Assembly: GCA_963733915.1 (NCBI GenBank) | Contig: CAVTEP010000001.1 | Coordinates: 671,710-735,709, forward strand | DNA from: Candidatus Sulfomarinibacteraceae bacterium | Lineage (GTDB): Bacteria; Acidobacteriota; Thermoanaerobaculia; Thermoanaerobaculales; Sulfomarinibacteraceae | Length of the DNA: 64,000 nt | Direction: 5' to 3' | Shown: in pieces, positions 5,026 through 62,475 of the stretch | How the letters are laid out: each line of letters begins with the position of its first letter | How positions within the stretch are numbered: position 1 is the first letter of the stretch | The notes under the pieces: model-generated | What the model was told of the DNA's origin: nothing | Database searches by the model: none | The model's input: only the letters and a program-made list of their open reading frames with translations | Position numbers and translations under genes: made by a program

Positions 5026-5045
5026 GCTGACCAACCGGCCGACGA

Positions 5046-5106
5046 CACCCACCCAACCGAAGAAACGCAAAGTCGCAAAGGCGCAACGACGCAAAGACGC
5101 AAAGGG
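5046..5106. repeat. E2: half element - C-rich clamp (cacccacccaacc) followed by tandem CGCAAAG-type units
   Basis: cacccacccaacc (5046-5058), then aaacgcaaagtcgcaaaggcgcaacgacgcaaagacgcaaaggg (5063-5106). No clear G-rich or complementary partner was seen. Lies in a convergent gap. Confidence 0.6.
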
Positions 5107-7277: not shown

Positions 7278-9784
7278 CACGTGGTTTGCTACCTCGACAG
7301 CTCCCGTTGTTTCTGGTCCGCATCGGCCGCCTCTATCCGCGGGCGGTTGCCGCCGGTGCAATCCTGGCCTGGATCGTGGCTGGTCTGCTTGCCTCGCGAG
7401 TCCACATCGAGACCGACATCCTCTCATTGGTGCCCCGTGACAACCCGGTGGTCGAGGGCTTCAAGACCACCGTCGAACGATTCGGTTCGGTGGACACGCT
7501 TCTTGTCGTGGTTCACCTCGAGCCCGAAAGGGCGCTCGAAAGCTCGATAGACTTTGCCGATCGGCTGACCGAAAACCTGCGCAGCTGGGAGGACATCGAC
7601 TGGGTCGAGTACCGGGTCGACACTTCCGCCGAGGCAGCTGTTCCGCTGCTCGACCGGGTAACACTGTTTCTCGAGCCGGAGGAGCTGGACGAGGTTCTGG
7701 CGGGATTTGACGACGACGGCCTCGAGGCGAATGCCGTCCGGCTGCGTTCTCAGCTGATGGCGCCCCAGAGCCTGGTCACCAAGGACGTGCTGCGACTCGA
7801 CCCGGCGGGTCTCCTGCCGCGGATCTTGGCAAAAATCCGGTTTGGAGGCGTCGGTGTCGGGGTTGATCCCGATACAGGCTGCCTCATCGACCCCGGGGGA
7901 AAGCTCCTGCTGCTGATGGCAAAACCCGCTCGCCCGGCCCAGGACCTCGAGTTCGACCGCCGGCTGGTGGCGGCCCTGAACGACCGGGTGGCTGCGGTGT
8001 CCGAGGCGTGGATGGAAGAAAACGGAGAGACGGCGGCGCCGGCTGTCGAGTTCACCGGTGGCTATGTGGTTGCGCTCGACGACGCCAAGCTCATCACGTC
8101 GGACATGTTGGTCGGGCTCGTGTCATCCTTGCTCGGGGTCATGGTTCTGTTTCTGCTCGCTTTCCGAAGCCGTGCAGCTCTGGTTTACGCGTTCTTCCCG
8201 CTGGTGACGGGCATCGCGCTCACATTCTCTTTCGGGGCGCTCGTTCTCGGACGGATCAACTCCCTGACCTCGGCCTTTGGCGGGCTTGTTATCGGTCTCG
8301 GCATCGACTTCGTGATCGTGCTCTATGCACGGTATATCGAGGAACGCCAATCGGGAGCGTCCCATGATGACGCGGTGGATGCCATGGGCCGCCACACAGG
8401 GGTCGGAGTGCTGCTTGGCGCGGTGACGACAGCCGCTACCTTCTACTCGTTTTTGATCACAGATTTCGCGGGTCTGTGGGAACTCGGGCTCCTGACCGGC
8501 TCCGGGATCCTCCTGCTGGTGGTAACCGTCTACCTCATGCTGCCGGCCCTTTTGACCCTCGTCCAGCAAAGAGTCCGGCGCGACCGCCCGTTGCACCTGC
8601 GATCGTTTGGCGCCGATCATCTGTGCCGCGCGAGCCTCCTGAAACCGCGCGCGACCATCGCCGTCGCCGCAGTGATCACGGTGGCCCTGGGTGTTGGTAT
8701 CCGCGGACTCCGCTGGGACGACGACTTCAGAAACATGCGGTCGGGAGACAACCGCGCTATCCAGCTCCGGCAAGAGGTGATGGACGCTTTTGGCCTCCGG
8801 TTTTCGCCGATGGTGCTTCGATTCGACGGCATCGACGAGGGAGATGCTCTGGCCAAATGCCGCACCATCCTGCCGGAGCTCGAACGACTTGTGGACGGCG
8901 AAAACCTGGTTGACGTTGACACGATCGCCGGCGTGATACCGACACCGGAAACCCAACGTACGCTCATCGCGCGCCTTGAAAAAGCGGCGCCGTCGCTCGA
9001 CGGACTTGCGGGACGCTTCGATGATGCACTCCGCGCCGAGGGTCTCAACCCGGCAGCTTTTCGCGAGGGCATCGACCATTTGACGGTAGCGCTCGAACGG
9101 CGCCAACCGCTATCGCTCGCTGACCTCGATGGAACCCCGCTGGCACGGGTGGTCGACCGTTACGTGGCGGTGGCTGACAACGAGGTGTCTGCGGCCATCT
9201 ACTGCTATCCGCCGGTCGGTGAATGGCGTCGCGGCGCCTCACCCGCGCTCGCTGAGGTCCTGGCGAGGTATCCGGATGCGGTCCTCTCGGGGCCGAACAT
9301 CATCTCGGCGGAGCTCCGTGAGATCGTCTGGGACGATGCTATCGCCGCTGCGGTGCTCGGCATCGTGGTTGTTTTCATTCTGATGTGGGCCGACCTCGGT
9401 TCTCCATTGCGCGCGTTGCTCGCGCTCTTACCGCTGTTTGTCGGCATGGTGTGGATGCTCGGCGCGATGGCTATTCTCGGTCTCCGGCTCAACTTCTTCA
9501 ACATCTTCGTGGTGACGATGATTATCGGCATCGGCGTCGACTACGGGGTGCATTTTCTACACCGATGGTATGAGTCAGGAGGCGATCAGGCGGCGGTGGC
9601 CGCGACCGCAAAAGCGATCGCAGTTGCCGCCCTGACAACCATGGTCGGCTTCGGGTCGCTCGTGATCTCGCATTATCCGGGCTTGCGATCGGTTGGCGGC
9701 GCTGCGATTCTCGGGGCGTTGTCGACAGCCGTGCTTGGTATCACCCTGCTTCCGGCGCTGCTTTCAAGGAAGGACGTTTCATGA
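7274..9784 (+). CDS. MMPL/RND-superfamily membrane transporter (HpnN-like)
   Basis: ORF track 7193..9784. The in-frame GTG at 7274 overlaps the pgsA stop (GTGA). Two 6-TM bundles carry GLGIDFVIVLYARYIEE and GIGVDYGVHFLHRWYE motifs, separated by large periplasmic domains. Confidence 0.8.
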   Translation: MTRGLLPRQLPLFLVRIGRLYPRAVAAGAILAWIVAGLLASRVHIETDILSLVPRDNPVVEGFKTTVERFGSVDTLLVVVHLEPERALESSIDFADRLTENLRSWEDIDWVEYRVDTSAEAAVPLLDRVTLFLEPEELDEVLAGFDDDGLEANAVRLRSQLMAPQSLVTKDVLRLDPAGLLPRILAKIRFGGVGVGVDPDTGCLIDPGGKLLLLMAKPARPAQDLEFDRRLVAALNDRVAAVSEAWMEENGETAAPAVEFTGGYVVALDDAKLITSDMLVGLVSSLLGVMVLFLLAFRSRAALVYAFFPLVTGIALTFSFGALVLGRINSLTSAFGGLVIGLGIDFVIVLYARYIEERQSGASHDDAVDAMGRHTGVGVLLGAVTTAATFYSFLITDFAGLWELGLLTGSGILLLVVTVYLMLPALLTLVQQRVRRDRPLHLRSFGADHLCRASLLKPRATIAVAAVITVALGVGIRGLRWDDDFRNMRSGDNRAIQLRQEVMDAFGLRFSPMVLRFDGIDEGDALAKCRTILPELERLVDGENLVDVDTIAGVIPTPETQRTLIARLEKAAPSLDGLAGRFDDALRAEGLNPAAFREGIDHLTVALERRQPLSLADLDGTPLARVVDRYVAVADNEVSAAIYCYPPVGEWRRGASPALAEVLARYPDAVLSGPNIISAELREIVWDDAIAAAVLGIVVVFILMWADLGSPLRALLALLPLFVGMVWMLGAMAILGLRLNFFNIFVVTMIIGIGVDYGVHFLHRWYESGGDQAAVAATAKAIAVAALTTMVGFGSLVISHYPGLRSVGGAAILGALSTAVLGITLLPALLSRKDVS

Positions 9785-13295: not shown

Positions 13296-13413
13296 GAGTT
13301 GTAGAGTTTTGGGTTTTGAGTTATGAGTTCCTCCCGCCCGACCCCGAAGGACTCCCTATTCGGGGGGAGGGTTGGGTGGCAACTCAAAACTCAAAACTAT
13401 GAACTCAAAACTC
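13296..13413. repeat. E4: STR-armed GC-clamped hairpin, GAGTTTT-type arms
   Basis: Left arm gagttgtagagttttgggttttgagttatgagtt (13296-13329). Core cctcccgcccgacccc..loop..ggggggagggttgggtgg (13330-13379). Right arm aactcaaaactcaaaactatgaactcaaaactc (13381-13413). Confidence 0.85.
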
Positions 13414-13545
13414 TGCAGCGTTGCAATCCTCGGCCGGGTGCTCTAGCCTGACGGGGACCGGTGGCGGCGTCGTTGCCGTAATCCGGGAGCGGGCCGATGC
13501 GCCGGGGGTCGCCCCGGCATTTTGTCATCCGGCAAGGTGGAGTGA

Positions 13546-17811: not shown

Positions 17812-17917
17812 GAATTCTCAGGTCTCAATTCTCAATTTTGAATTCCCTCCTCTCTTCGACTTCTGGGGGTGGGTCGGGGCAATTGAAAATTGAGAACTCA
17901 AAATTAAGAATTGAAAG
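17812..17917. repeat. E5: STR-armed GC-clamped hairpin, GAATTCT/CAATTCT-type arms
   Basis: Left arm gaattctcaggtctcaattctcaattttgaatt (17812-17844). Core ccctcctctc..ttcgacttct..gggggtgggtcgggg. Right arm caattgaaaattgagaactcaaaattaagaattgaaag (17880-17917). Confidence 0.88.
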
Positions 17918-17946: not shown

Positions 17947-18990
17947 ATGAAAAAAGCCCTGATCACCGGCATTACCGGCCAGGACGGCTCGTATCTCGCG
18001 GAGTTGCTGCTCGCCAAGGAATACGAGGTCCACGGTCTGGTCCGGCGCTCCTCGACCTTCAACCGCAGCCGCATCGACCACCTGAGGAAGGCGTCTCTCG
18101 GAGACCGCCACGTACGTCTCCACTATGGCGATCTCGGCGACGCCGAGTCGCTGACGACCGTGCTGCGACTGGTGAGCCCGGACGAGATTTACAACCTCGC
18201 CGCCCAGTCCCACGTCGGCATCTCGTTTTCGATGCCCACCTATACCGGCGACGTTTCCGGTCTCGGAGCCGTGCGACTGCTCGAGGCTGTGCGACAGGTC
18301 GCACCCGAGGCACGGTTTTACCAGGCGTCGTCGTCCGAGCTCTTTGGCAAAGCGAAAGAGGTGCCGCAGAACGAGTCGACGTCCTTCCACCCGCGCTCAC
18401 CGTATGCGGTGGCCAAACTCTACAGCTTCTGGGCTGCCGTCAACTACCGAGAGGCCCACGGGTTGTTTGCAGCCAACGGGATCCTTTTCAACCACGAGTC
18501 GCCTCGGCGTGGAGAAAATTTCGTGACCCGCAAGATCACCCGCGCGGTGGCTGAGATCGCGGGCGGTCAGCGAGACCGGGTGTCCCTCGGAAATCTCGAC
18601 GCCCGCCGCGACTGGGGTTTTGCCGGCGACTTCGTTGATGCGATGTGGCGAATCGTGCAGACGGACGAACCGGACGACTGGGTCGTCGGTACAGGCGAGG
18701 AACACTCGGTACGCGAATTCTGCGAGCACGCCTTCGCCCACGTCGGCATTGAATTGGAGTGGGCAGGTAGCGGGATCGACGAGGTGGGCCGGGACCGTTC
18801 GACCGGCGCCACGCGGGTGGTGGTGAACTCGCGGTACTTCCGGCCGGCAGAGGTCGATCGATTGCTGTCGGATGCCGCAAAGGCGCGCCGCGAGCTTGGT
18901 TGGGAGCCGAAGGTCGGATTTGAGGAGCTGGTACGGATGATGGTTGACGCCGACCTCGAAGCGGTCGGCGCGACCACGCTAGAACGTTAG
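17947..18990 (+). CDS. gmd: GDP-mannose 4,6-dehydratase
   Basis: ORF track 17911..18990; ATG at 17947 gives [22 protein letters not shown]. Also SSELFGK, YAVAKLY and [17 protein letters not shown]. The last residues TTLER* are encoded in the left arm of E6. Confidence 0.93.
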
Positions 18991-19106
18991 AACGTTGGAA
19001 CGTCACACGTTAGAACGATTTCAAGTTGGACGGCCGGGTCTCCGCCGGACGTGCTCCGGTTGGGTTGGCCGAACGTGTTAACGTTTTAGCGTTGAACGTT
19101 TTAACG
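18979..19106. repeat. E6: STR-armed hairpin, AACGTT-type arms
   Basis: Left arm ctagaacgttagaacgttggaacgtcacacgttagaacg (18979-19017). The GC-rich core includes ggttgggttgg. Right arm gaacgtgttaacgttttagcgttgaacgttttaacg (19071-19106). The gmd stop lies in the left arm. Confidence 0.8.
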
Positions 19107-19160
19107 ACGCTTGTTTTGGCCGTGAGGTCGTCATAGCATTGCGAAGCGTGGAGGCAGCGG

Positions 19161-20804: not shown

Positions 20805-20869
20805 AAAGTGCATTTGCCACCTCGTCGGACCATGAGTACTACGTTACAAACGGATGCAGGGGAGTGGAT

Positions 20870-20983
20870 GAGATATGAGTTTCGAGTTTTGAGTTTTGAG
20901 TTTTGAGTTGCGCGTTGCTCGACCCAACAGGATTGGGTTGGGTGAGGGATAACTAAAAACTCAAAACTAAGAACTCAAAACTG
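20870..20983. repeat. E7: STR-armed GC-clamped hairpin, GAGTTTT-type arms
   Basis: Left arm gagatatgagtttcgagttttgagttttgagttttgagtt (20870-20909). Core gacccaac..aggat..tgggttgggtgaggg. Right arm ataactaaaaactcaaaactaagaactcaaaactg (20949-20983). Confidence 0.88.
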
Positions 20984-20996
20984 ATGCTGATTACGT

Positions 20997-22745: not shown

Positions 22746-22768
22746 TACTGTTTCCAGAAAAAATTCGA

Positions 22769-22793
22769 GCCCGGGCTTCGGCCCGGGCTTTTT
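22769..22793 (+). terminator. Canonical rho-independent terminator downstream of the OmpA-family gene
   Basis: gcccgggc (22769-22776), loop ttcg, gcccgggc (22781-22788), then ttttt (22789-22793). It lies 24 nt after the stop codon. Confidence 0.8.
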
Positions 22794-22796
22794 CGT

Positions 22797-22912
22797 CGTT
22801 AGAACGTTTGGACGTTAGAACGTTAGAACGTTCCCGACCTCGCCAGTCATTGAAGATCTCGGGGTGGATGGGTGGGAAACGTTCTAACGTTCCAACGTGT
22901 AACGTTCGAACG
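22797..22912. repeat. E8: STR-armed GC-clamped hairpin, AACGTT-type arms, immediately after a canonical terminator
   Basis: Left arm cgttagaacgtttggacgttagaacgttagaacgtt (22797-22832). Core cccgacctcgcc..loop..ggggtggatgggtggg (22861-22876). Right arm aaacgttctaacgttccaacgtgtaacgttcgaacg (22877-22912). Confidence 0.88.
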
Positions 22913-22954: not shown

Positions 22955-23473
22955 ATGACCGATCGCGTCGGACCGGGTAACCTGCCGATTCTGGCCGTGC
23001 TGGGGCCATCCGATGCGTCGCCAAATGAATACGCGGTCGCGGAACGGGTCGGAGCGGCGGCTGCTCGTTCAGGATGGGTGGTACTTACCGGCGGAGGGTC
23101 GGGCGTCATGGAGGCCGCGAGCTGCGGCGCCGTCGAGGCGGGTGGCCTCACGGTGGGGATTCTCCCGACCGCGGTCTCCGGCAACGGCTACCCGAACCCC
23201 TGGGTGAGAATTCCGATCTACACGGGCGCCGGTAGTGCCCGAAATGCGTTCAACGTGCTGTCGGCATGCCTGTGCATCGCTATCGGCGGCGGCCCCGGCA
23301 CCTTGTCCGAGATCGCGCTGGCCCTCAAACACGGCATCCCCGTGTGGTGCTGGCAAAGCTGGGCTCTCACGCCGCCCCTCGGCTCCGACCGTCCTCTCCC
23401 CAGAAACTTCGGCACCGCAGACGAGCTTCTCGCTGCTCTGGAGATCGAGTTGCAGAAACGTTTGAACGTTTGA
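22955..23473 (+). CDS. TIGR00725/LOG-like (lysine decarboxylase-like fold) family protein
   Basis: ORF track 22808..23473. The ATG at 22955 is preceded by GGGAGG. Motifs: VVLTGGGSGVMEAASCGAVEAGG, GILP, IAIGGGPGTLSEIALAL. The upstream part of the ORF runs through repeat E8, and the C-terminal QKRLNV* lies in E9. Confidence 0.72.
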   Translation: MTDRVGPGNLPILAVLGPSDASPNEYAVAERVGAAAARSGWVVLTGGGSGVMEAASCGAVEAGGLTVGILPTAVSGNGYPNPWVRIPIYTGAGSARNAFNVLSACLCIAIGGGPGTLSEIALALKHGIPVWCWQSWALTPPLGSDRPLPRNFGTADELLAALEIELQKRLNV

Positions 23474-23493
23474 ACGTTCAACGTTTTAACGTT
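23456..23493. repeat. E9: AACGTT-unit quasi-palindromic repeat without GC clamp, in a convergent gap
   Basis: aaacgtttgaacgtttgaacgttcaacgttttaacgtt. It contains the stop codon of the TIGR00725-like gene. Confidence 0.8.
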
Positions 23494-25592: not shown

Positions 25593-25642
25593 CGATACCC
25601 CCCTCGCGTTGAGATCTGACGCCGGGAGTGTAGCAATTCCTT

Positions 25643-26005
25643 CGTTAGAACGTTAAAACGTTAGAACGTTAAAACGTTCGGCTCATCTGGAGATTCGTGG
25701 GATCGAGGCGTGAAGGTTTCGGTCGGCAAGGGCAGCGACAGGAGCGGCGACAGAATGCAAAGGCAGGGTCGGTCAGCAGCGGCCGGAGCAGCGACCATGG
25801 ATCGTGACGACGGTCGCTGTGGACTGCCCCTGACGCGGTCTCCAACCGCTGCCGCCGCCACTGGCGCCGTACCGTTCCAACGGACGCGACCAATAGCTTC
25901 TTTTGAGGGGGGTTGGGCGATCCCCTTTTCTCCTTTTCTCCTTTTCCGCTCTGCCTCTTGAGGGTGGGCGGAACGTTCTAACGTTCCAACGTTTTAACGT
26001 TCCAA
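25643..26005 (+). repeat. E10: composite nested element (~363 bp): AACGTT arm, GC-rich inner module, GGAGAAAA-type (as cttttcc) arm, GGGTGGGCGG clamp, inverted AACGTT arm
   Basis: Left arm cgttagaacgttaaaacgttagaacgttaaaacgttcg (25643-25680). Module ~25731-25859. ccttttctccttttctccttttcc (25923-25946). gagggtgggcgg (25959-25970). Right arm gaacgttctaacgttccaacgttttaacgttcc (25971-26003). Colinear homologue of E14. Confidence 0.85.
25731..25859 (+). repeat. GC-rich inner module, copy A (candidate structured RNA or MITE core)
   Basis: ggcagcgaca..aaggcagggtcggtcagcagcggccgg..gtcgctgtggactgcccctgacgcggtctccaaccgctgcc. It shares the blocks GGCAGGGTC(N4)AGCAGCGGCCG and CTGTGGACTGCCCCTGACGCGGYCTCCA with copies B-D. 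Confidence 0.75.
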
Positions 26006-26007
26006 TG

Positions 26008-26709
26008 TCAGTTCAGTGTGATGACCGCGTCGCCGACACCGACCGAGACCTCGACGCGGTGGGTGCCGTCGCCGGACCACGAGGCCGCATGGCTCACGAA
26101 ACCGCCGCTCGAGATCAACTCGCCGAGGACCGTGAGGCGGGCGTCGCCGACGCCACCGGCCGCCTCGGCCGACCTGTAGGCCGAGGCCGCGCCGAGGACC
26201 ACCGCCGTGCCGACGCCAAGGTCGACCACGACGTCACCATCGGCGGCGTCCACCTCGATATCGCCGACTCCAGAGTCGATTTCCACCCCTGCCGTGATAC
26301 CCCGGATTGCGATGTCCCCGACACCGTGGTCGAGCGTGAGGGCGATCTGCGGCGGCATGCCGATCGTCCATCGTTCCTCAAAACGCCGATCATCGTCCGC
26401 GGACGGGTGGATGCCGAGTACCAGGCGACCACCTTTGATGGAAGTCTCGAGGGACGCGGCTTCGACCTCCCGCTCGGCCTGCCGCTTGGACGAGAAGAAT
26501 CCGCCCCGTCTTGGTGTCAGAACCACCTCGATGGAGATCTCTTGAGCGCCCTCGACCGCGACGATGCTGACGTCACCGATGCCGCTATCGAGGTCGACGG
26601 AATCGATTCCGGCGAGCGGAAGGGTCTCGGACAAGGTGCGCGGACCGCCCGCGTCTGCGGGTAGGGCGAGAAGCAAGAGAACAGACAAAACGAGGACGGT
26701 TCTTTTCAT
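26008..26709 (-). CDS. Secreted DUF4097-like beta-strand repeat protein
   Basis: Signal peptide MKRTVLVLSVLLLLALPADA. Repeated G(V/I)GD(I/V)xI/V motifs: DSGIGDVSIV, HGVGDIAIRG, DSGVGDIEVD, VGVGDAVITL. Confidence 0.65.
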   Translation of the reverse strand: MKRTVLVLSVLLLLALPADAGGPRTLSETLPLAGIDSVDLDSGIGDVSIVAVEGAQEISIEVVLTPRRGGFFSSKRQAEREVEAASLETSIKGGRLVLGIHPSADDDRRFEERWTIGMPPQIALTLDHGVGDIAIRGITAGVEIDSGVGDIEVDAADGDVVVDLGVGTAVVLGAASAYRSAEAAGGVGDARLTVLGELISSGGFVSHAASWSGDGTHRVEVSVGVGDAVITLN

Positions 26710-36463: not shown

Positions 36464-37120
36464 TGGCGCGTCTTTGCCGACGCGACGTGTGCCGGTCTTT
36501 CGGTCCTGGTCCCGCTGCCGCTAGTGGACCTGGTCTTCGAGACGATCTTTCGCCGGCGGATTCCGGGCACCATCTCCCGGCTCCACCGCCGTCCGATCGA
36601 GCCGGCGGTGCGGCGAGGACTCGGGCGTTCGCTCTCCGGAACTCTGTCCGTCTCCAGCTGCCTGACGGTTCCGTTCGCGATCGGCCGCTACGTTCTCCGC
36701 CGCGTGTGGCGCAAGATCATCTACGTCTACGCGGTGAAGGATTCGACCACCGCACTCACCGAGTACTGGCACAGGGCGTTTCTGATCGACCACATGGTGC
36801 GCGCCGGGCACCTCGAGGCCGGAGTCGACACCGATCTCGCCGTGCGGACCTTCGAGCGGACCCTGCGCGAATTGGATCCCAGTCCGCTCATGGGTCTTGC
36901 CCGGCTGACGGTGGCCAATGTCGGGCACGTGTTCCGCCTCCTGGTCCGCGCCCGTCGATTGGGAGCCGCCGAGGTGACCCGGTCACTCGGCGAGTTGCTC
37001 GCGTCACACCGGCTCGCCGCGGAGGGCTCGATGCGGGGCGCAGCGAGCCGATACAATGAGCTTTACCTGCTGAGCCTGGAAGCGCGTCACGCCGGCGCAC
37101 CATCGATCCCCGGGACCTGA
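36422..37120 (+). CDS. Hypothetical protein (no family recognised); true start probably downstream of 36422
   Basis: ORF with GC3-rich codon usage from ~36480 onward. The first ~14 codons are simply the AAATCCG-type repeat arm of E15, so the annotated start is doubtful. Confidence 0.45.
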   Translation: MVIPNSDFRNPNFDWRVFADATCAGLSVLVPLPLVDLVFETIFRRRIPGTISRLHRRPIEPAVRRGLGRSLSGTLSVSSCLTVPFAIGRYVLRRVWRKIIYVYAVKDSTTALTEYWHRAFLIDHMVRAGHLEAGVDTDLAVRTFERTLRELDPSPLMGLARLTVANVGHVFRLLVRARRLGAAEVTRSLGELLASHRLAAEGSMRGAASRYNELYLLSLEARHAGAPSIPGT

Positions 37121-42513: not shown

Positions 42514-42563
42514 CAACGTTCAAACGTTCAAACGTTCAAACGTTAAGACGTTATAACGTTAAA
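42514..42563. repeat. E16: tandem AACGTT-unit array (6 hexamers), direct-repeat form
   Basis: caacgttcaaacgttcaaacgttcaaacgttaagacgttataacgttaaa. It starts 1 nt after the DUF362 gene stop. Confidence 0.8.
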
Positions 42564-42591: not shown

Positions 42592-44118
42592 GTGGCGTTC
42601 ATCGAGGAGGTCGCGTTGCCGGAGCCTGGTCTCAAGATTCTGATGGTCACCAGCGAGGTGGTCCCTTTCGCCAAGGCCGGCGGCCTCGGCGACATGGTGG
42701 CGGCGCTGTCCTCGGAGCTCCGTCGTCAGGGGCACGACGTACGGGTGGTTCTGCCGCGCTACTACTCGATCGATGTCGGGAGGCTGCAACGAACGGGCGG
42801 TCCGCTCGGTGTGCCGCTCGGTGTCGAGGAGGAGTGGTGCGCGGTTTATCAGAGCCGGCTGTCGGACGCCGATGTGCCGGTCTACTTTCTCGGCCACGAC
42901 GAACTCTACGGCCGCGATGGGATCTATGGGACCAAGACCGAGCCCAGCTTCGCCGACAACCTTCGGCGCTTCGCTTTGCTCAGCCGCGGCGCATTCCAGC
43001 TCTGCCGGGCGCTCGGCTGGATTCCCGACGTGATGCACGCCCACGACTGGCCCGCGGCAGTCGTCCCGGTCTGCCTCTACGGGCGGGAGCACGAGGGGGA
43101 GTTCGCCGGAACCGGCTCGGTGCTCACTATCCACAACCTCGGCCACCAGGGGATCTTCCCACGCGAAGAATTCGTGCACCTGCCGTTGGCGCCCGAGCTC
43201 TACTCGAGTGCGGGTTTCGAGTCCAGGAGCGGCATCAACCTCCTCCAGGCCGGAATCCAAAACGCCGACATCCTGACCACTGTGTCGCCCACCTACGCGG
43301 CGGAGATCCAGACAGCGGAGTTCGGCTGCGGGCTCGACGGGCTGCTCCGCCGGCGGCGAACCGATCTGTCCGGAGTGCTCAACGGCATGGACTACGAGAT
43401 CTGGAACCCGGAGACCGACCTCGAGATCCCGGCCAACTTTTCAGACGAGAAGCTCGATGGCAAGGCGGTCAACAAGGCGGCGTTGCAGGAAGCGATGGGC
43501 CTCGAGAAGAACCGCAAGGTGCCGGTGGTCGCGATGATCAGCCGGCTGGTGGATCAGAAGGGCTTCGGCGCGCTCTGCGGCCCGACCCACGGAAGCCTGT
43601 ACTCGATCTGCGATGAGCTCGACCTCCAGTTCGTCATCCTCGGCTCCGGCGATGCGTGGTGCGAGGAAGAGCTTACAACCCTCGCCGCCAAGCTGCCCAA
43701 CCTCGCGGTCGCGCTCGAGTTCAACGATCCTCTCGCCCACCTCATCACCGCGGGTGCCGACTTCTTTCTGATGCCGAGCGCCTACGAGCCGTGCGGGTTG
43801 AGTCAGATGTACGCGTTGCGATACGGCACTCTACCCATCGTTCGCCATACCGGCGGACTTGCCGATACAGTCGAGAACTTCGACGAGAAGACCGGCGAGG
43901 GCACCGGATTCGTTTTCCAAGACCTCACCCCAAAGGCCATCGCCAACACGGTCGGGTGGGCGGTGTGGGCCTGGTACAACCGGCCCAAAGACATCACCGC
44001 GATGCGCCGGCGGGCCATGCGGCGGCGCTATTCGTGGCAGGCCTCGGCGGCGCGATACGGAGAGCTCTACGAGGAATCCCTCGACCGCCGTTTCGGCCGC
44101 ACGCCGCGCACCTGGTGA
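42592..44118 (+). CDS. glgA: Glycogen synthase (ADP-glucose type)
   Basis: KILMVTSEVVPFAKAGGLGDMVAALSSEL, HAHDWPAA and PSAYEPCGLSQMYALRYGTLPIVRHTGGLADTV. An alternative TTG start at 42616 is preceded by GAGGAGG. Confidence 0.93.
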   Translation: MAFIEEVALPEPGLKILMVTSEVVPFAKAGGLGDMVAALSSELRRQGHDVRVVLPRYYSIDVGRLQRTGGPLGVPLGVEEEWCAVYQSRLSDADVPVYFLGHDELYGRDGIYGTKTEPSFADNLRRFALLSRGAFQLCRALGWIPDVMHAHDWPAAVVPVCLYGREHEGEFAGTGSVLTIHNLGHQGIFPREEFVHLPLAPELYSSAGFESRSGINLLQAGIQNADILTTVSPTYAAEIQTAEFGCGLDGLLRRRRTDLSGVLNGMDYEIWNPETDLEIPANFSDEKLDGKAVNKAALQEAMGLEKNRKVPVVAMISRLVDQKGFGALCGPTHGSLYSICDELDLQFVILGSGDAWCEEELTTLAAKLPNLAVALEFNDPLAHLITAGADFFLMPSAYEPCGLSQMYALRYGTLPIVRHTGGLADTVENFDEKTGEGTGFVFQDLTPKAIANTVGWAVWAWYNRPKDITAMRRRAMRRRYSWQASAARYGELYEESLDRRFGRTPRTW

Positions 44119-44121
44119 GCC

Positions 44122-44243
44122 CCATCCACCCACCCTTCCGCGAAAAGGAGAAAAGGAGAAAAGGAGAAAAGGAGAGGGGGAGAGGGAGCAGAGGCTGGGA
44201 AAGGGGAGGGTGGGTGGTCTCCTCTTCGCCTTTTCCCCTTTTC
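44122..44243. repeat. E17: element with interleaved order: C clamp, (GAAAAGGA)x4 arm, G clamp, complementary ccttttcc arm
   Basis: ccatccacccaccc (44122-44135). gaaaaggagaaaaggagaaaaggagaaaaggaga (44142-44175). ggggagggtgggtgg (44203-44217). tctcctcttcgccttttccccttttc (44218-44243). Confidence 0.8.
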
Positions 44244-44294
44244 ATTTATGCGATTCGAACATCCAAATCCAAACGCTTGCGCTACACTCGGCCG

Positions 44295-44789
44295 GTGACA
44301 TCCAAGAGAATCGTGCAGGTTGGGCTTCTGATTGCGGTCATCGTGGTCGTGCTTGCGGTGCGCCATTATTTTTCGCCGGGAGAGGTCGTGAGGCGGCAGC
44401 TCGTTGCCACCATCAACGCATTCGAAGACGAACGGATGCTGGCCGTGATGTCGGCGATCTCCCGCTCCTACTCTGACCCCTGGGGTCTGGATTACGAAAC
44501 CCTGGCCGGTGTTCTGCACGAGCTGATGGATACCTATGACGATCTCCAGGTGGACCTCGTTTTCGACAAGCCCGAGGTTGGGGAGGACGGGGTTCGGATC
44601 GGTTTCCAGTTTGTCCTCTGGGGCAGTGACCAGGGAACTCGGGGCTACATTGTCGGGAGCCTGTCAGCGCCGTGCACTGCGGTTCTCGTGTGGCGCAAGG
44701 AACAGCCCGGTTGGCGGCTGGCGTCGACCGCCGAGCTCGATATCCCCGAGCTTCGCAATGAGCTTGAGGCGATGCGCAATCACCATTAG
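44295..44789 (+). CDS. Hypothetical signal-anchored protein (~164 aa)
   Basis: This is the 3' part of ORF 43656..44789. The upstream part overlaps glgA and repeat E17 and is rejected. The GTG at 44295 gives MTSKRIVQVGLLIAVIVVVLAV (charged n-region plus TM). The stop TAG is at the edge of E18. Confidence 0.5.
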   Translation: MTSKRIVQVGLLIAVIVVVLAVRHYFSPGEVVRRQLVATINAFEDERMLAVMSAISRSYSDPWGLDYETLAGVLHELMDTYDDLQVDLVFDKPEVGEDGVRIGFQFVLWGSDQGTRGYIVGSLSAPCTAVLVWRKEQPGWRLASTAELDIPELRNELEAMRNHH

Positions 44790-45194
44790 AACGTGTGAAC
44801 GTTCAAACGTTAGTACGTTCCACCCGCCCACCCTCAGGAGGCAGAGGGGAAAAGTGGAAAAGGGGAAAAGGGGAAAAGGAGCCATCGCAGATTTCAATTT
44901 CGGATTTTCCGCCCAAATCTCCCCGAAGCTGTGGGACCCGTCCGATAAACCGTCGATCAGGGGCAGCGGCACGAACAGCGACAGCGGCTGGAGACCGCGT
45001 CAGGGGCAGTCCACAGCGACAACATTTTGAAAGACCGATTCGAACTGCACCGGTCGCTGCCGCGGTCGTTGCTCTCTAGCCCCGCCTCTGCGGTCTGTCG
45101 CTGTCCCTGACCGCCGTTGCAACGAATGGCACCAACGACTTTATGGGGGGAGGGTGGCCCCCTTTTCTCCTTTTCCCCTTTTCTCCTTTTCTCC
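44785..45194 (-). repeat. E18: composite element (~410 bp) in inverted orientation relative to E10/E14, with GGAAAAG / CTTTTCC arms flanking the inner module
   Basis: attagaacgtgtgaacgttcaaacgttagtacgtt (44785-44819). ccacccgcccaccc (44820-44833). (ggaaaag)n at 44848-44880. Module ~44960-45115. ggggggagggtgg (45145-45157). cccccttttctccttttccccttttctccttttctcc (45158-45194). Confidence 0.85.
44960..45115 (-). repeat. GC-rich inner module, copy D (reverse orientation)
   Basis: On the + strand: ggggcagcggc..ggctggagaccgcgtcaggggcagtccacagcgac..gctctctagccccgcctctgcggtctgtcgctgtccctgaccgcc. This is the reverse complement of the blocks conserved in copies A-C. Confidence 0.75.
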
Positions 45195-46238
45195 TCAGGC
45201 ACGCATGCTCTTCGCCGTGATCTCGATCGCTCGCGCGATGTCCTCATCGCTAATGTGATAGTGCGTCACCATCCGGATGCTGTCGCCCCCGAGGGGGTGA
45301 CAGAGCACGCCGTCGCCGGCGAGGCGTGAGGCAAGCGCTGCGGCGTCCAAATCTGAGCTTGGTGCCAGCGAAAAGAAGACGATGTTGGTTTCGACCGTGT
45401 CCGGGTCGAGGACCACGCCGGGGATCTCGGCCAGCCCGACGGCGAGCTCGTGCGCACGACGATTGTCCTCACCGAGCAGGGGCAGCACCTCCTCGAGCGC
45501 CACCAACCCGGCGGCGGCGATGACCCCGACCTGGCGCATGCCGCCACCGAACATCTTGCGGATGCGGCGCGCCTCGATGATGGCGTCGGCGTCGCCGACG
45601 AGGAGTGAACCGACCGGTGCGCCGAGCCCCTTGGAAAGACAGAACATGATTGTGTCGCAGCCGGCGCCGAGCTCGGCCGCCGAGACGCCGAGCGCCGCCG
45701 CCGCGTTGTGGATTCGGGCCCCGTCGAGGTGAACCGGAAGGTGGTGACGACGGGCAACGCCGATAAGCTCGTTCATCCGAGCCGGCGGTGTGACGTGACC
45801 GCCGGCGAGGTTGTGGCTGTTTTCGAGGACCACCAGCGAAGTCGGCGTCCGGTATCCGGTCCGAGGCTGAATCGCTCTCTCCAACTGCTCCGGGCTGATG
45901 ATTCCGTCGTCGGTCGGGATCGGACGTGGGAGAGCCCCGGAAAGGGCCGCCATCGCGCCCATCTCGAAGTTGAACACGTGGGCGCCCGCCTCTCCGACCA
46001 CCTCTGATCCGGGGTGGGTGTGGAGGTGGATGGCGATTTGATTGCCCATCGTGCCGGTCGGTACGAAGACTGCCGCCTCTCGCCCCATGAGCTCCGCAGC
46101 CCGCTCCTCAAGGCGGTTGACGGTCGGATCCTCGCCGTAGACATCGTCACCGACCTCGGCCCTCGACATGGCCCGGCGCATGCTGTCCGTGGGATGTGTT
46201 ACCGTGTCGGATCGCAAGTCGATCAGGGGTTTGTTCAT
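45195..46238 (-). CDS. ltaE: Low-specificity L-threonine aldolase (PLP-dependent)
   Basis: [19 protein letters not shown]...[16 protein letters not shown]...[13 protein letters not shown]...[12 protein letters not shown]. Confidence 0.9.
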
Positions 46239-53954: not shown

Positions 53955-54059
53955 GAATTCTCAATTCTCAATTCTCAATTTTGAATTACCCATTCTCACC
54001 GGAAAAATCGGGGAGGATGGAAGGGAATTGAGAACTGAGAATTCAAAACTGAGAACTGG
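53955..54059. repeat. E19: STR-armed GC-clamped hairpin, GAATTCT/CAATTCT-type arms, directly after actF
   Basis: Left arm gaattctcaattctcaattctcaattttgaatt (53955-53987). Core acccattctcacc..ggaaaaatc..ggggaggatggaaggg. Right arm aattgagaactgagaattcaaaactgagaactgg (54026-54059). Confidence 0.88.
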
Positions 54060-54382: not shown

Positions 54383-54532
54383 GAATTCTGAATTAGGAAT
54401 TGGGAACTCCCATCCGCCCCCCCAGTGAAATCGTCCTGTTCAGGGGGTGGGAGGGCGGCATTCCTAATTCCTCATTCCTAATTCCTAACTCCTGACTCCT
54501 CTTTGCTCATTCTTCCCCCTAATTCCTCATCC
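54383..54532. repeat. E20: STR-armed GC-clamped hairpin, GAATTAGG-type arms (right arm longer than left)
   Basis: Left arm gaattctgaattaggaattgggaact (54383-54408). Core cccatccgccccccc..loop..gggggtgggagggcgg (54443-54458). Right arm cattcctaattcctcattcctaattcctaactcctgactcc (54459-54499), plus ctaattcctcatcc (54519-54532). Confidence 0.85.
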
Positions 54533-56069: not shown

Positions 56070-56185
56070 CAATTAGGAATTAGGAATGAGGAATTAGGAA
56101 TGCCGCCCACCTCCCCTGGTTATCAACCGAGAGAGGGAGGTTGGAGGGGAATTCCTAATTCCTAATTCCTAATTCCTAAATTCTC
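56070..56185. repeat. E21: STR-armed GC-clamped hairpin, GAATTAGG-type arms; best-paired example
   Basis: Left arm caattaggaattaggaatgaggaattaggaatg (56070-56102). ccgcccacctcccc (56103-56116). Loop tggttatcaaccgagaga. gggaggttggagggg (56135-56149). Right arm aattcctaattcctaattcctaattcctaaattctc (56150-56185). The reverse complement of the left arm matches the right arm with 2-3 mismatches by eye. Confidence 0.9.
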
Positions 56186-61768: not shown

Positions 61769-62379
61769 TCGGCGGTTTTACCTGGCTGAAGGTCACGATC
61801 ATGGTGATGCTGATCATGGCGACCGTGACCGCGCGGGCTGATGACGGGATCGACCTCGATCGCTGGCACGACGAGCTGCGGGCTGCCATCGGCGAGGATC
61901 CGCAGGTAGACGAGGATCGCCGACCGTCCCTCGGGATTTACCCGAGCCTCGGTGTGGCGGCCGGGCCGCCGAACTGGGTGGCCGCCCAGGCCAACGCCTA
62001 CCTGTCGTTTTCCGACGGGCGGCGGTTCTCGCTTTATGCCGGCTATGGAGAGGAGTGGGGCCCGCAGGCCGACTCTCAAATCATCACCCTCGGGTGGGGA
62101 GGCGTGAGGCGGATCCCGGCCGCCTCGAAGCAGCTCGGGTTTCACGGCAAGTACCTCCGTTACCGGCGTTGGAACGAAGAAGACCACGGTGTCCACCACG
62201 GGCTTTCGTTCGGCACCGAGAGCGGGGTCGGGTGGGGAGGGCTGTCCTTCGAGGTAGGAGCGGCAAGGTCCGAGCAGAACCACTGGTTGATCACCCTCGA
62301 GATAGCCCTCAAGTTTGCCACACCGGTGCACATCCCTTTGAAGAAAATGCCAACCTCGCCAGCCGAACCCAATTCTTAG
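61765..62379 (+). CDS. Hypothetical secreted protein, possibly beta-rich or outer-membrane; translationally coupled to the PLD gene
   Basis: The GTG start overlaps the PLD stop (GTGA). Signal-like KVTIMVMLIMATVTARA. Gly/Trp-rich segments (ITLGWGGVRR, SGVGWGGLSFEVG). The stop TAG and the final residues PNS* lie in the left arm of E23. Confidence 0.5.
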   Translation: MIGGFTWLKVTIMVMLIMATVTARADDGIDLDRWHDELRAAIGEDPQVDEDRRPSLGIYPSLGVAAGPPNWVAAQANAYLSFSDGRRFSLYAGYGEEWGPQADSQIITLGWGGVRRIPAASKQLGFHGKYLRYRRWNEEDHGVHHGLSFGTESGVGWGGLSFEVGAARSEQNHWLITLEIALKFATPVHIPLKKMPTSPAEPNS

Positions 62380-62475
62380 TTCTCAGTTCTCAATTCTCAA
62401 TTCCCAACCACCTCCCCTATGTTTTTGTGGGAGGGTGGTGAATTAAAAATTAAGAATTGAAAATTGAGAATTCGG
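62371..62475. repeat. E23: STR-armed GC-clamped hairpin, CAATTCT-type arms
   Basis: Left arm aattcttagttctcagttctcaattctcaattc (62371-62403). ccaaccacctcccc. Loop tatgtttttgt. gggagggtggtg (62429-62440). Right arm aattaaaaattaagaattgaaaattgagaattcgg (62441-62475). Confidence 0.88.

Follow-up and report, generated by a model that had tools for sequence, protein, structure and literature searches.

The subject of this study is the crossed arrangement of sequence modules in two intergenic repeat elements, E17 (44122-44243) and E18 (44790-45195), which lie in a 64,000-nt stretch of contig CAVTEP010000001.1 from a Candidatus Sulfomarinibacteraceae bacterium (the window; positions are counted from its first nucleotide). 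In both elements a C-rich clamp, a purine arm of tandem units (R), a G-rich clamp and a complementary pyrimidine arm (Y) follow each other in an order in which clamp pairing and arm pairing cross instead of nesting. We conclude, with a probability of about 0.68, that this order came about as a by-product in a family of nested and modular hairpin repeats, intergenic in location, whose modules are gained, lost and flipped, and that it does not represent a conserved pseudoknot. The modules would be AT-rich arms of four or five tandem 7-8-nt units, generic C and G clamps, mini-arms and a GC-rich hairpin module, and a comparison with about 30 related copies established module content and order, the homology of the copies, turnover between relatives and the nested folds. 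The initial annotation of this DNA had proposed that the elements are mosaics of a few recombining modules, a proposal that is borne out by composites shared between loci, by varying module subsets at orthologous sites and by the occurrence of all combinations in metagenomic copies. Its further idea, that the crossed order provides a pseudoknot or mutually exclusive folds, is not supported for either element, as E18 has a nested alternative, the folding energy of E17 is at the level of shuffled sequences and the layout is not conserved; it is also weakened by the loop motif described below, whose non-pairing orientation is the commoner one, and by the generic nature of clamp complementarity.

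E17 is situated between the stop codon of glgA (44116-44118) and a small conserved open reading frame (ORF), and all of its modules were found on the + strand in the order previously described for 44122-44243. The outer C clamp C1, CCATCCACCCACCC(TTCC), occupies 44122-44139 (core CCATCCACCCACCC at 44122-44135; pattern match and pairing) and begins 4 nt past the glgA stop codon at 44118, a placement directly past that stop which is also seen in five relatives (L113, L115, L116, L120 and L122; L numbers denote loci outside the window). The R arm (44142-44202) consists of four perfect GAAAAGGA units, detected by Tandem Repeats Finder (TRF) as (GAAAAGGA)x4.2 at 44142-44175, and then of degenerate G-rich units including GCAGAGG; GCAGAGG/CCTCTGC are variant arm units in related loci. 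The G clamp G2, GGGGAGGGTGGGTGG (44203-44217), lies in the loop of the R/Y hairpin, and the Y arm, TCTCCTCTTCGCCTTTTCCCCTTTTC (44218-44243), was identified by inverted-repeat pairing. The arms pair over 26 nt with 88% complementarity and the clamps over 14 nt with 93%, and this inverted-repeat pairing confirms that the two crossed each other (C, R, G, Y).

E18, at 44790-45195, fills the space between the stop of the small ORF (44789) and that of a convergent threonine-aldolase-like gene (45195), and we again recovered every module reported for it on the + strand, namely a C clamp, (GGAAAAG)n, about 265 nt with the GC-rich module, a G clamp and (CTTTTCY)n. An outer AACGTT-type arm at 44790-44819, which self-folds owing to its palindromic unit, is present on one side only, as had been noted, and has no partner. 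It is followed by the outer C clamp C1, CCACCCGCCCACCC (44820-44833), with a conserved spacer TCAGGAGGCAG (together 44820-44844; pattern and alignment), and by the R arm, (GGAAAAGN)x4.4 (44845-44879; TRF). The 265-nt interval from the R arm to the G clamp (44880-45144) holds a mini-arm nested in the loop, ATTTCAATTTCGGATTTT (44891-44908; ATTTCGGATTTCGGATTTT in L113), a degenerate inner C clamp C2, CCGCCCAAATCTCCCC (44909-44924; CCGCCCACCGCTCCCC in L114), which is the nested partner of the G clamp, and the GC-rich module, a long imperfect hairpin (44925-45144). The G clamp G2, GGGGGGAGGGTGG (45145-45157; pattern, pairing and folding), and the Y arm, CCCC(CTTTTCY)x4 (45158-45195, with the CTTTTCY units at 45161-45195; TRF and pairing), complete the element. 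The two arms are 89% complementary over 36 nt; L113 and L114 share the Y arm without change, and L119 has one too. The junction of C1 and spacer also occurs at 25947-25971 and 35177-35204, both on the - strand, and at about 20 metagenomic loci, and analogous mini-arms were found in L136, L164, L205 and L208.

The crossed order is therefore present in E18, but the initial annotation overlooked the inner clamp C2, which removes the need for crossed pairing. RNAfold predicted a fully nested rod in which R and Y form a 36-bp stem, G2 is paired with C2 and its flanks, the module forms an extended hairpin and C1 is essentially single-stranded, with a minimum free energy (MFE) of -188.1 kcal/mol (z -6.26; 0 of 100 shuffles as good). 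The duplexes available to the G clamp are near equal, -24.6 kcal/mol with the outer C1 and -23.9 kcal/mol with the inner C2, and RNAalifold on five aligned copies, namely E18, two other composites of the window and two orthologues, picks C2:G2 and keeps the module helices in all five; double changes were seen at 8 of the 107 predicted pairs of the whole alignment, several of them in module helices. In addition, the module-less metagenomic locus L125, with the order A-C1-spacer-R-C2(CCCACCGCCCTCCCC)-loop-G2(GGGGAGGTTGGGTGG)-Y-A' (A and A' being outer arms), carries an intact nested clamp pair homologous to that of E18. The earlier description of E18 as E17 plus an inserted module holds in so far as the two align collinearly once the module is left out (67% over 123 positions), although this alignment is mostly low-complexity. 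We would describe E18 instead as a C2+G2 type like L125, in which the GC-rich module was probably inserted between C2 and G2 and the G clamp is predicted to pair, nested, with the degenerate C2. No right outer arm follows, since the aldolase gene ends at this point.

The mosaic character of E18 is apparent from its homology, over about 370 nt, with two composites elsewhere in the window (25643-26005 and 34854-35226), all three sharing a block made up of the AACGTT arm, C1, TCARGAGGCAGAG, the R arm, C2 and the GC-rich module. The other two composites end in a further AACGTT arm, which leaves their outer arms nested and their R arm an orphan; E18 ends instead in a G clamp and a Y arm, so that its R arm has a partner and its AACGTT arm none. 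The copies are on average about 74% identical. The module of E18 is indeed reversed relative to the copies in both composites (module at 25680-25900 and 34890-35115), and also to a fourth, more diverged copy (module at 33060-33295) within 32975-33350, where a stop codon is followed by a C clamp, a (GATGCTG) arm, a second C clamp, the module, a G clamp and (AAATCCG)x4, the two arms not being complementary to each other. A metagenome scan with the core of the module, CGCGTCAGGGGCAGTCCACAG, gave no matches.

These elements belong to a much larger family. The window (G+C about 63%) is dense in short AT-rich arrays of 7-8-nt units in 3-8 copies, as detected by TRF, and a typical element has the order tandem-unit arm, C-rich clamp, loop, G-rich clamp and complementary arm, which together make one long hairpin (for example 13304-13413, 17813-17916, 20869-20982, 22797-22912, 53956-54058, 56071-56179 and 62370-62472). 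We placed about 25 such loci in the 64 kb on a rough gene map derived from third-position GC, and all of them lie between predicted genes, in co-directional, convergent and divergent spacers alike; nearly every intergenic spacer of this GC-rich, sulfatase-rich lineage has one. A small vocabulary of units (AACGTT, GGAAAAG, AATTCTC, GAGTTTT, AATTAGG, AAATCCG and GATACTG) is reused over many loci and in relatives, and all clamps follow one consensus, CCCACCC(T)CCC or GGG(A)GGGTGGG, so that any C clamp complements any G clamp. In the window the arm pattern matched 15 times against 0.03 expected and the clamp pattern 14 times against 1.96 expected. Most arrays face a complementary array on the far side of a clamp or loop, lone arms being the minority, and the hairpins are nested in up to three tiers. 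The polarity of the clamp hairpins is absolute, with the C-rich strand 5' and the G-rich strand 3' (for example 13329-13379, 17845-17879, 54409-54458, 56103-56149 and 62403-62440, and in L114, L116, L117, L120 and L122): we counted 16 C..G arrangements against four G..C, and those four are juxtaposed separate modules and not hairpins. As a C-then-G order is unchanged by reverse complementation, this polarity is valid on both strands and is a real constraint.

Given this generic consensus, we examined how often the crossed order recurs and in which contexts. A junction of C clamp and R arm is present at all four GGAAAAG-type loci of the window (E17, E18, and 25924-25971 and 35134-35204 on the - strand), and among the clamp-arm adjacencies of the window and five relatives 37 are of the normal kind (arm then C, G then arm) and 13 'anomalous' (C then arm, arm then G). 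A metagenome scan with the pattern CCCACCC-N(2-16)-GAAAAGGNGAAAAGG returned 91 loci, of which about 22 are true relatives (G+C 0.59-0.65), most with AACGTT arms, and 43 are an unrelated repeat. The relatives, with about 19 independent C1-R junctions, follow the order A-C1-spacer(..GCAGAGG)-R-[X]-Y-[G1]-A', where X is the loop motif and G1 is a clamp found after the Y arm in L148, L186 and L196. X is C-rich in ten loci (L131, L139, L143, L151, L164, L165, L177, L192, L194 and L196), G-rich, as in E17, in five or six (L128, L159, L169, L186, L208 and, weakly, L136), both in one (L125) and neither in two (L148 and L170/L176), so that the orientation unable to pair with C1 is about twice as common as the pairing one. 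The C-rich form, CCACCCTCCCC, and the G-rich form, GGGGAGGGTGG, are reverse complements, i.e. the same motif in either orientation, and L186, which has both C1 and G1, can be assigned to the G type on one strand and to the C type on the opposite one. A cognate nested clamp pair is found in only four of the approximately 19 R/Y loci, and complete nested multi-tier elements are represented by L120, L125, L148, L186 and L196. The recurrence of the interleaved order outside the window, which the initial annotation had left as a check, is thus real: it is seen in five or six independent E17-like loci and as an arm-C-arm'-G arrangement in L116.

We propose the same order (outer arm, C1, spacer, R arm, [X], Y arm, [G1], outer arm') as the grammar of the GGAAAAG subfamily, in which the R/Y hairpin would be an inner module in the loop of an ordinary element and X may face either way, as C2 or as G2. 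E17 would then be a stripped form, C1-R-G2-Y, without outer arms, C2 and G1, and read on the other strand it would correspond to the common R-C2-Y-G1 without C1. As all clamps share one consensus, the two non-cognate clamps left over in E17 are complementary and give it its crossed appearance, and we attribute the recurrence of the order to an absent clamp partner or a flipped inner hairpin. A related scheme, which we regard as highly improbable, is that the R and Y arms, being inverted repeats, recombine with each other and so invert X, and that the order of E17 is one of two states; the G orientation could then pair with the upstream C1 and the C orientation could not, and the roughly 2:1 mix of orientations among related loci would be a snapshot of switching. 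If true, this would constitute a heritable, reversible switch of DNA/RNA architecture at a gene 3' end.

The by-product explanation is supported by the orthologous sites of relatives, which we obtained from contigs encoding homologues of the small ORF (L113-L123; the percentages are protein identities). At the E17 site, L113 (98%) has the same C clamp and arms minus 32 nt, the deletion being bounded by AAAGG microhomology, and its G clamp, GGAGAGTGGCTGG, differs from that of E17 by two changes that are uncompensated in C1 and weaken the duplex from -31.7 to -18.1 kcal/mol; the simple R/Y hairpin of this site has a z of -3.1. In L114 (88%) the site holds a C clamp, three R units and a G-rich segment without a Y arm, in L115 (80%) a C clamp and then a different arm (GATACTG), and in L119 (79%) only a Y arm past the glgA stop. 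More distant relatives (L116, L120 and L122; 60-64%) have a C clamp past the glgA stop and then other arm types. A complete two-tier nested element, C1-armA-C2-loop-G2-armA'-G1-armB, lies at 5985-6150 of L120, and the order at 7544-7740 of L116 is C-arm-C-arm-C-loop-arm'-G. The E18 site is equally variable, with a 115-nt R-loop-Y hairpin lacking the module, the AACGTT arm, C1 and G2 in L119, only 12 nt between the genes and no E18 in L115, ordinary nested elements with GAGTTTT-type arms in L116 and L120-L123, and AAATCCG/AATTCCG arms in L117 and L118. Unit number also changes: the R arm of E18 has three units in L113, four in the window and about nine in L114 with a constant Y arm, and the left arm has two units against four in L122 and L123. 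The metagenome contigs L114 and L115, which are independent, both start (position 1) inside or adjoining the E17 site, which is consistent with the repeats breaking short-read assemblies.

The folding of E17 bears directly on the alternative that E17-type elements are functional RNA switches or pseudoknots, in which C1:G2 and R:Y form together or in a bistable manner and control the 3' end of glgA or read-through into the small ORF; we consider this very unlikely. Folding was performed exclusively with nested energy models, and the energies of the isolated helices were set beside the nested MFE. The MFE is -46.2 kcal/mol for the + strand and -43.5 kcal/mol for the - strand, with dinucleotide-shuffle z values of +0.70 and +0.17 respectively, so E17 folds no better than shuffles. 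On the + strand the MFE structure consists of two adjacent nested hairpins, one of the C clamp with degenerate G-rich arm units (about 44171-44190) and one of the Y arm with the G-clamp region, in a diffuse ensemble (MFE frequency 0.03), and on the - strand it is the arm hairpin. Folded alone, the two helices are nearly isoenergetic (clamp -27.9, arm -29.0 kcal/mol), which, together with the reality of the crossed order, its presence in five or six independent loci and the summed helix energies, is what a functional switch could draw upon. However, the G2-Y linker is 0 nt and the C1-R linker 2-10 nt, whereas the stems measure 14 and 23-26 bp; a linker of 2-10 nt would need to reach from one end of 14 + 26 stacked bp to the other, so the two full helices could not coexist, and judged by standard H-type pseudoknot geometry their joint formation is implausible. 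A short partial contact between loop and flank may form. The functional explanation is further opposed by the two uncompensated changes and the 32-nt deletion in L113, by the lack of a Y arm in L114 and of C1, R and G2 in L119, by the greater frequency of the non-pairing orientation of X and by the lack of a match to any Rfam family. As one consensus runs through all clamps, covariation between C1 and G2 is not measurable.

Several observations weigh against our by-product explanation. An energy model blind to sterics favours both E17 helices at once (about -28 plus about -29 against -46 kcal/mol), and C1:G2 comprises 11 contiguous base pairs, or 14 with one wobble, and is perfect (13/13) in L169. 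The crossed order does recur (L128, L159, L169, L186 and L208, and L116 at 7544-7740), so that the initial annotation is not refuted by the criterion that it had set itself. The tally of X was read by eye from printed sequences, and the automatic classifier merged C2 into the Y arm and took G-rich arm units for G2. In addition, we identified neither a mobilising enzyme nor a target-site duplication, and the mechanism of turnover is therefore one that we infer. From the sequences compared, modules would turn over by replication slippage, as suggested by the changes in unit number and by the 32-nt deletion between AAAGG microhomologies, and also by recombination or by insertion into existing hairpin loops.

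The same purine and pyrimidine tracts raise the question of DNA-level structure, and we considered it unlikely that the elements act as cruciforms, H-DNA triplexes or G-quadruplexes affecting supercoiling, replication or recombination. E17 is a polypurine tract of about 77 nt flanked by polypyrimidine, the segregation of purines and pyrimidines is extreme in both E17 and E18, the clamp polarity is absolute and the same on both strands, and the elements occupy convergent, co-directional and divergent spacers alike, all of which such an explanation would accommodate. E17 also holds, in its G-rich tract at 44197-44214, one of the seven canonical G-quadruplex motifs of the window. These motifs are not general to clamps, however, since most clamps lack one and all seven in the 64 kb are on the + strand, with none on the - strand; we therefore rejected the G-quadruplex as a general clamp property. 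H-DNA requires a perfect mirror repeat, whereas (GAAAAGGA)n, as read from the sequence, is a near but imperfect one, and spacers of 42-280 nt disfavour cruciform extrusion.

The reuse of a small unit vocabulary across many loci and relatives could instead mean that the arms are arrays of protein-binding sites, with one protein per 7-8-nt unit, that the clamps are motifs and not pairing partners and that module order is a layout of sites; an OB-fold/Csp-like single-strand binder or a dedicated repeat-reading protein would be the candidate. A precedent is provided by direct repeats of heptamers, for which binding by S1/Csp/CsrA-type proteins has been proposed, each CspB molecule taking up one heptamer (PMC4679880). 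Many clamps are without a partner, with a cognate nested pair at only four of about 19 R/Y loci, and lone arms do occur. On balance we rate this possibility low, because arms nearly always have a complementary partner, intact elements fold far better than shuffles (E18, z -6.3; E17 site of L113, z -3.1), unit number varies freely from 3 to 9 and no candidate protein was identified. The partnerless lone arms adjoin gene starts or ends (42515-42560, 175-207, 23457-23493 and 5045-5104); among them are (AACGTTCA)x5.8 directly upstream of glgA, in the case of 42515-42560, and a C clamp followed by (ACGCAAAG)x5.

Across the small ORF, E17 and E18 arms also match each other as complements, and more closely than inside each element (88-89%): 44142-44172 with 45161-45191 is 97% complementary over 31 nt, and 44219-44243 with 44857-44881 is 92% complementary over 25 nt with a perfect 15-mer. 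The outer arms of the pair are of the GAAAAGGA variant and the inner arms of the GAAAAGGG variant, a pattern that is lost in L114. This complementarity gave rise to the idea that E17, the ORF and E18 form a transposon-like unit, which we rejected because all relatives keep the ORF in synteny, even where E18 is lacking or the arms are of another type. It could also be taken to favour an explanation in which the R arm acts as a Shine-Dalgarno mimic and the Y arm as an anti-Shine-Dalgarno mimic and both modulate ribosome loading on the small ORF, possibly through pairing of the 5' and 3' untranslated regions, i.e. of the E17 Y arm with the E18 R arm (92-100% complementary; E17 R with E18 Y, 97%, both above the within-element values). 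The R arm (GAAAAGGA)n contains four tandem AAGGAG motifs, the Y arm carries CUCCUU and (GAAAAGGN)n arrays occur in many phyla. Nevertheless, such a role seems extremely unlikely. Downstream of E17, at 44281, there is a likely promoter box (GCTACACTC), which would probably leave E17 outside the ORF mRNA; 50-150 nt separate the arms from the start codon; L114 does not retain the A-variant/G-variant pattern; and entirely different arm units occupy the same sites in relatives.

A scan of a genome collection for (GAAAAGGN)3 gave at least 112 loci in many unrelated phyla, the taxa including Acidobacteriota, Chthonomonadaceae, delta-proteobacteria and Prevotella (for example, among L001-L112, L005 4389-4560, L031 1992-2080, L052, L066 598-745 and L090). 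The arrays there are often paired with (CCTTTTC)n as a simple hairpin, and the GAAAAGGN unit includes the Shine-Dalgarno consensus AAGGAG. A C clamp upstream of such arrays was found in 0 of 120 cases in other phyla among the matches listed. The unrelated repeat that accounted for 43 of the 91 metagenome matches is a soil repeat of about 130 nt, ...TTTAAAAGTCGTCTTCTTCCCCTCCCCACCCCTGGAAAAGGGGAAAAGGTGGGGA...CCCCGCCAAGGGGC..GCCCCTTGGATCCCTGCTTTGCTCAACTTTTAAATAGCCCTG, on contigs of about 54% G+C (L124, L135, L137, L140-L142, L144, L145 and about 35 more).

Of the neighbouring genes, the small ORF (44295-44789, + strand) encodes a membrane-anchored protein of 164 amino acids, lies between E17 and E18 outside the repeats and has 180 homologues of about 164 amino acids, being syntenic between glgA and the aldolase gene in all relatives; the convergent threonine-aldolase-like gene (45195-46238, - strand) has its stop codon overlapped by the E18 Y arm, and a look-up of the exact aldolase protein returned no record. 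The 9-mer GCTACACTC at 44281-44289 (+ strand) is, from its count and position, a likely -10-type promoter box for the small ORF: it is found three times in the window against about 0.5 expected (also at 36217-36225 and 25626-25634, both on the - strand), each copy is 13-41 nt upstream of a gene start and adjoins a repeat arm, and TGCTACACT is similar to an extended -10 promoter. With this box downstream of it, E17 is likely to lie upstream of the small-ORF transcription unit. An NCBIfam scan of ten window proteins returned housekeeping functions (SecA, an HpnN-like RND transporter, a sulfatase and others), and the genes of the window and related loci, among them SecA, alternative complex III, PatA_N, a hopanoid-transporter-like RND protein and numerous sulfatases, would be suggestive of a planctomycete-like bacterium.

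With regard to function, our working view, by analogy with known repeats, is that the elements would act as plain long hairpins at gene ends, in the manner of repetitive extragenic palindromes (REP) and bacterial interspersed mosaic elements (BIME), and not as pseudoknots. They are probably not primary terminators: a textbook bidirectional intrinsic terminator (AAAAAATTCGAGCCCGGGCTTCGGCCCGGGCTTTTT) at 22761-22796 stands directly upstream of the element 22797-22912, and a scan with a terminator consensus found none at E17 and a weak 5-6-bp match inside the junction of G clamp and Y arm in E18. In 12 of 15 elements the + strand RNA folds better than the - strand RNA, with a gap of 13-17 kcal/mol in seven (the strand-biased elements include 13298-13420, 18970-19112, 20865-20988, 25638-26010, 34848-35232 and 36228-36464), since mismatched positions give G.U in the + strand RNA but C.A in the - strand RNA; this bias could reflect selection on sense transcripts at the RNA level or strand-biased C>T mutation. 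The + strand is also the one favoured by most genes of the window and by GC skew.

The wider lesson of E17 and E18 is that generic GC-rich consensus modules give crossed complementarity automatically, which is not evidence of a pseudoknot without conservation. The family itself merits its own description for its tandem-unit hairpins, absolute polarity, nesting and rapid module turnover between close relatives. Knowing how complementary arrays come to flank a clamp could inform such questions as the maintenance of palindromes, the fragmentation of metagenome assemblies from these organisms at gene ends and a possible general role of such hairpins as a 3'-end signal in bacteria without canonical terminators. 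It seems to be undescribed, as Rfam 15 at gathering score had no match in the whole window, a permissive Rfam scan of 44050-45300 gave sub-threshold miRNA-hairpin look-alikes around E17 and nothing meaningful, and the library of papers searched held no description of such a hairpin-repeat family, the one relevant paper being that on TAACTGA repeats (PMC4679880).

Among known systems, the REP/BIME sequences of enterobacteria and pseudomonads resemble the present family in being very abundant, strictly intergenic, mostly located at gene 3' ends and assembled from imperfect palindromes into mosaics that vary with locus and strain, and abundant intergenic imperfect palindromes in mosaics are what we found here. 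The roles proposed for REP/BIME are those of mRNA 3'-end stabilisers, terminator-like barriers and protein-binding sites. They are, however, unique palindromes of 20-40 bp, whereas the present stems measure 30-45 bp and are built of tandem 7-8-nt AT-rich units plus a GC clamp, with a multi-tier nesting and an absolute C-5'/G-3' clamp polarity unlike those of REP/BIME. No common GTAG/CGTC head was found beside arms or clamps in the window, GTAG occurring only singly before 13304 and inside the three GCTACACTC boxes and not generally, and no RAYT or transposase-like gene was present among the ten scanned proteins, a scan that did not exhaust the window, or among the Pfam labels of related loci.

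Tandem heptamer intergenic repeats were reportedly described in cyanobacteria by Mazel et al. in 1990 as STRR sequences. Like the present arrays, tandem heptamers of the STRR/TAACTGA kind are intergenic arrays of 7-nt units, in 2-40 copies, with several unit types and mixed arrays, whose copy number varies between close relatives and at which assemblies break; intergenic arrays with copy number variable between relatives were likewise found here. The TAACTGA repeats are known from Beggiatoaceae, cyanobacteria and Bacteroidetes (PMC4679880). Tandem heptamers are mainly direct repeats without an obligatory complementary partner, whereas most of the present arrays are paired, and in the BOGUAY Beggiatoaceae most lie just upstream of start codons; the present family, unlike them, has complementary pairs flanking GC clamps, long hairpins, units of 7 or 8 nt and a different, GC-rich host lineage.

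The H-type pseudoknot and the bistable riboswitch are matched by E17 in the segment order a, b, a', b'. E17 differs from them in combining stems of 14 and 26 bp with linkers as short as 0 and 2-10 nt, a combination outside known geometry, in a shuffle-level fold and in having neither conservation and covariation nor a ligand-binding or regulatory context. Small dispersed repeats of Nostoc, including nested ones, are said to have been treated by Elhai et al. in 2008. Like miniature inverted-repeat transposable elements and nested small repeats, the present elements show presence and absence at orthologous sites (E18 is absent in L115 and minimal in L119), elements inside elements (the module and the mini-arm in the loop) and diverged composites of about 370 nt within 64 kb. 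They differ from such transposable elements in having no fixed terminal inverted repeats, no detectable target-site duplication and no cognate transposase, and in a mean copy identity of about 74% with no sign of recent bursts; their arms are of low complexity. BOX elements of Streptococcus pneumoniae have a modular A-B(n)-C structure with a variable tandem sub-unit and complementary ends that form a stem-loop, and as in the present family their module combinations vary by locus; there is no sequence similarity, and three fixed modules stand against an open vocabulary of arms, generic clamps and nested hairpins. The family described here is thus set apart from REP/BIME, heptamer repeats and BOX elements by its complementary arrays across generic clamps, its polarity, its nesting and its host lineage.

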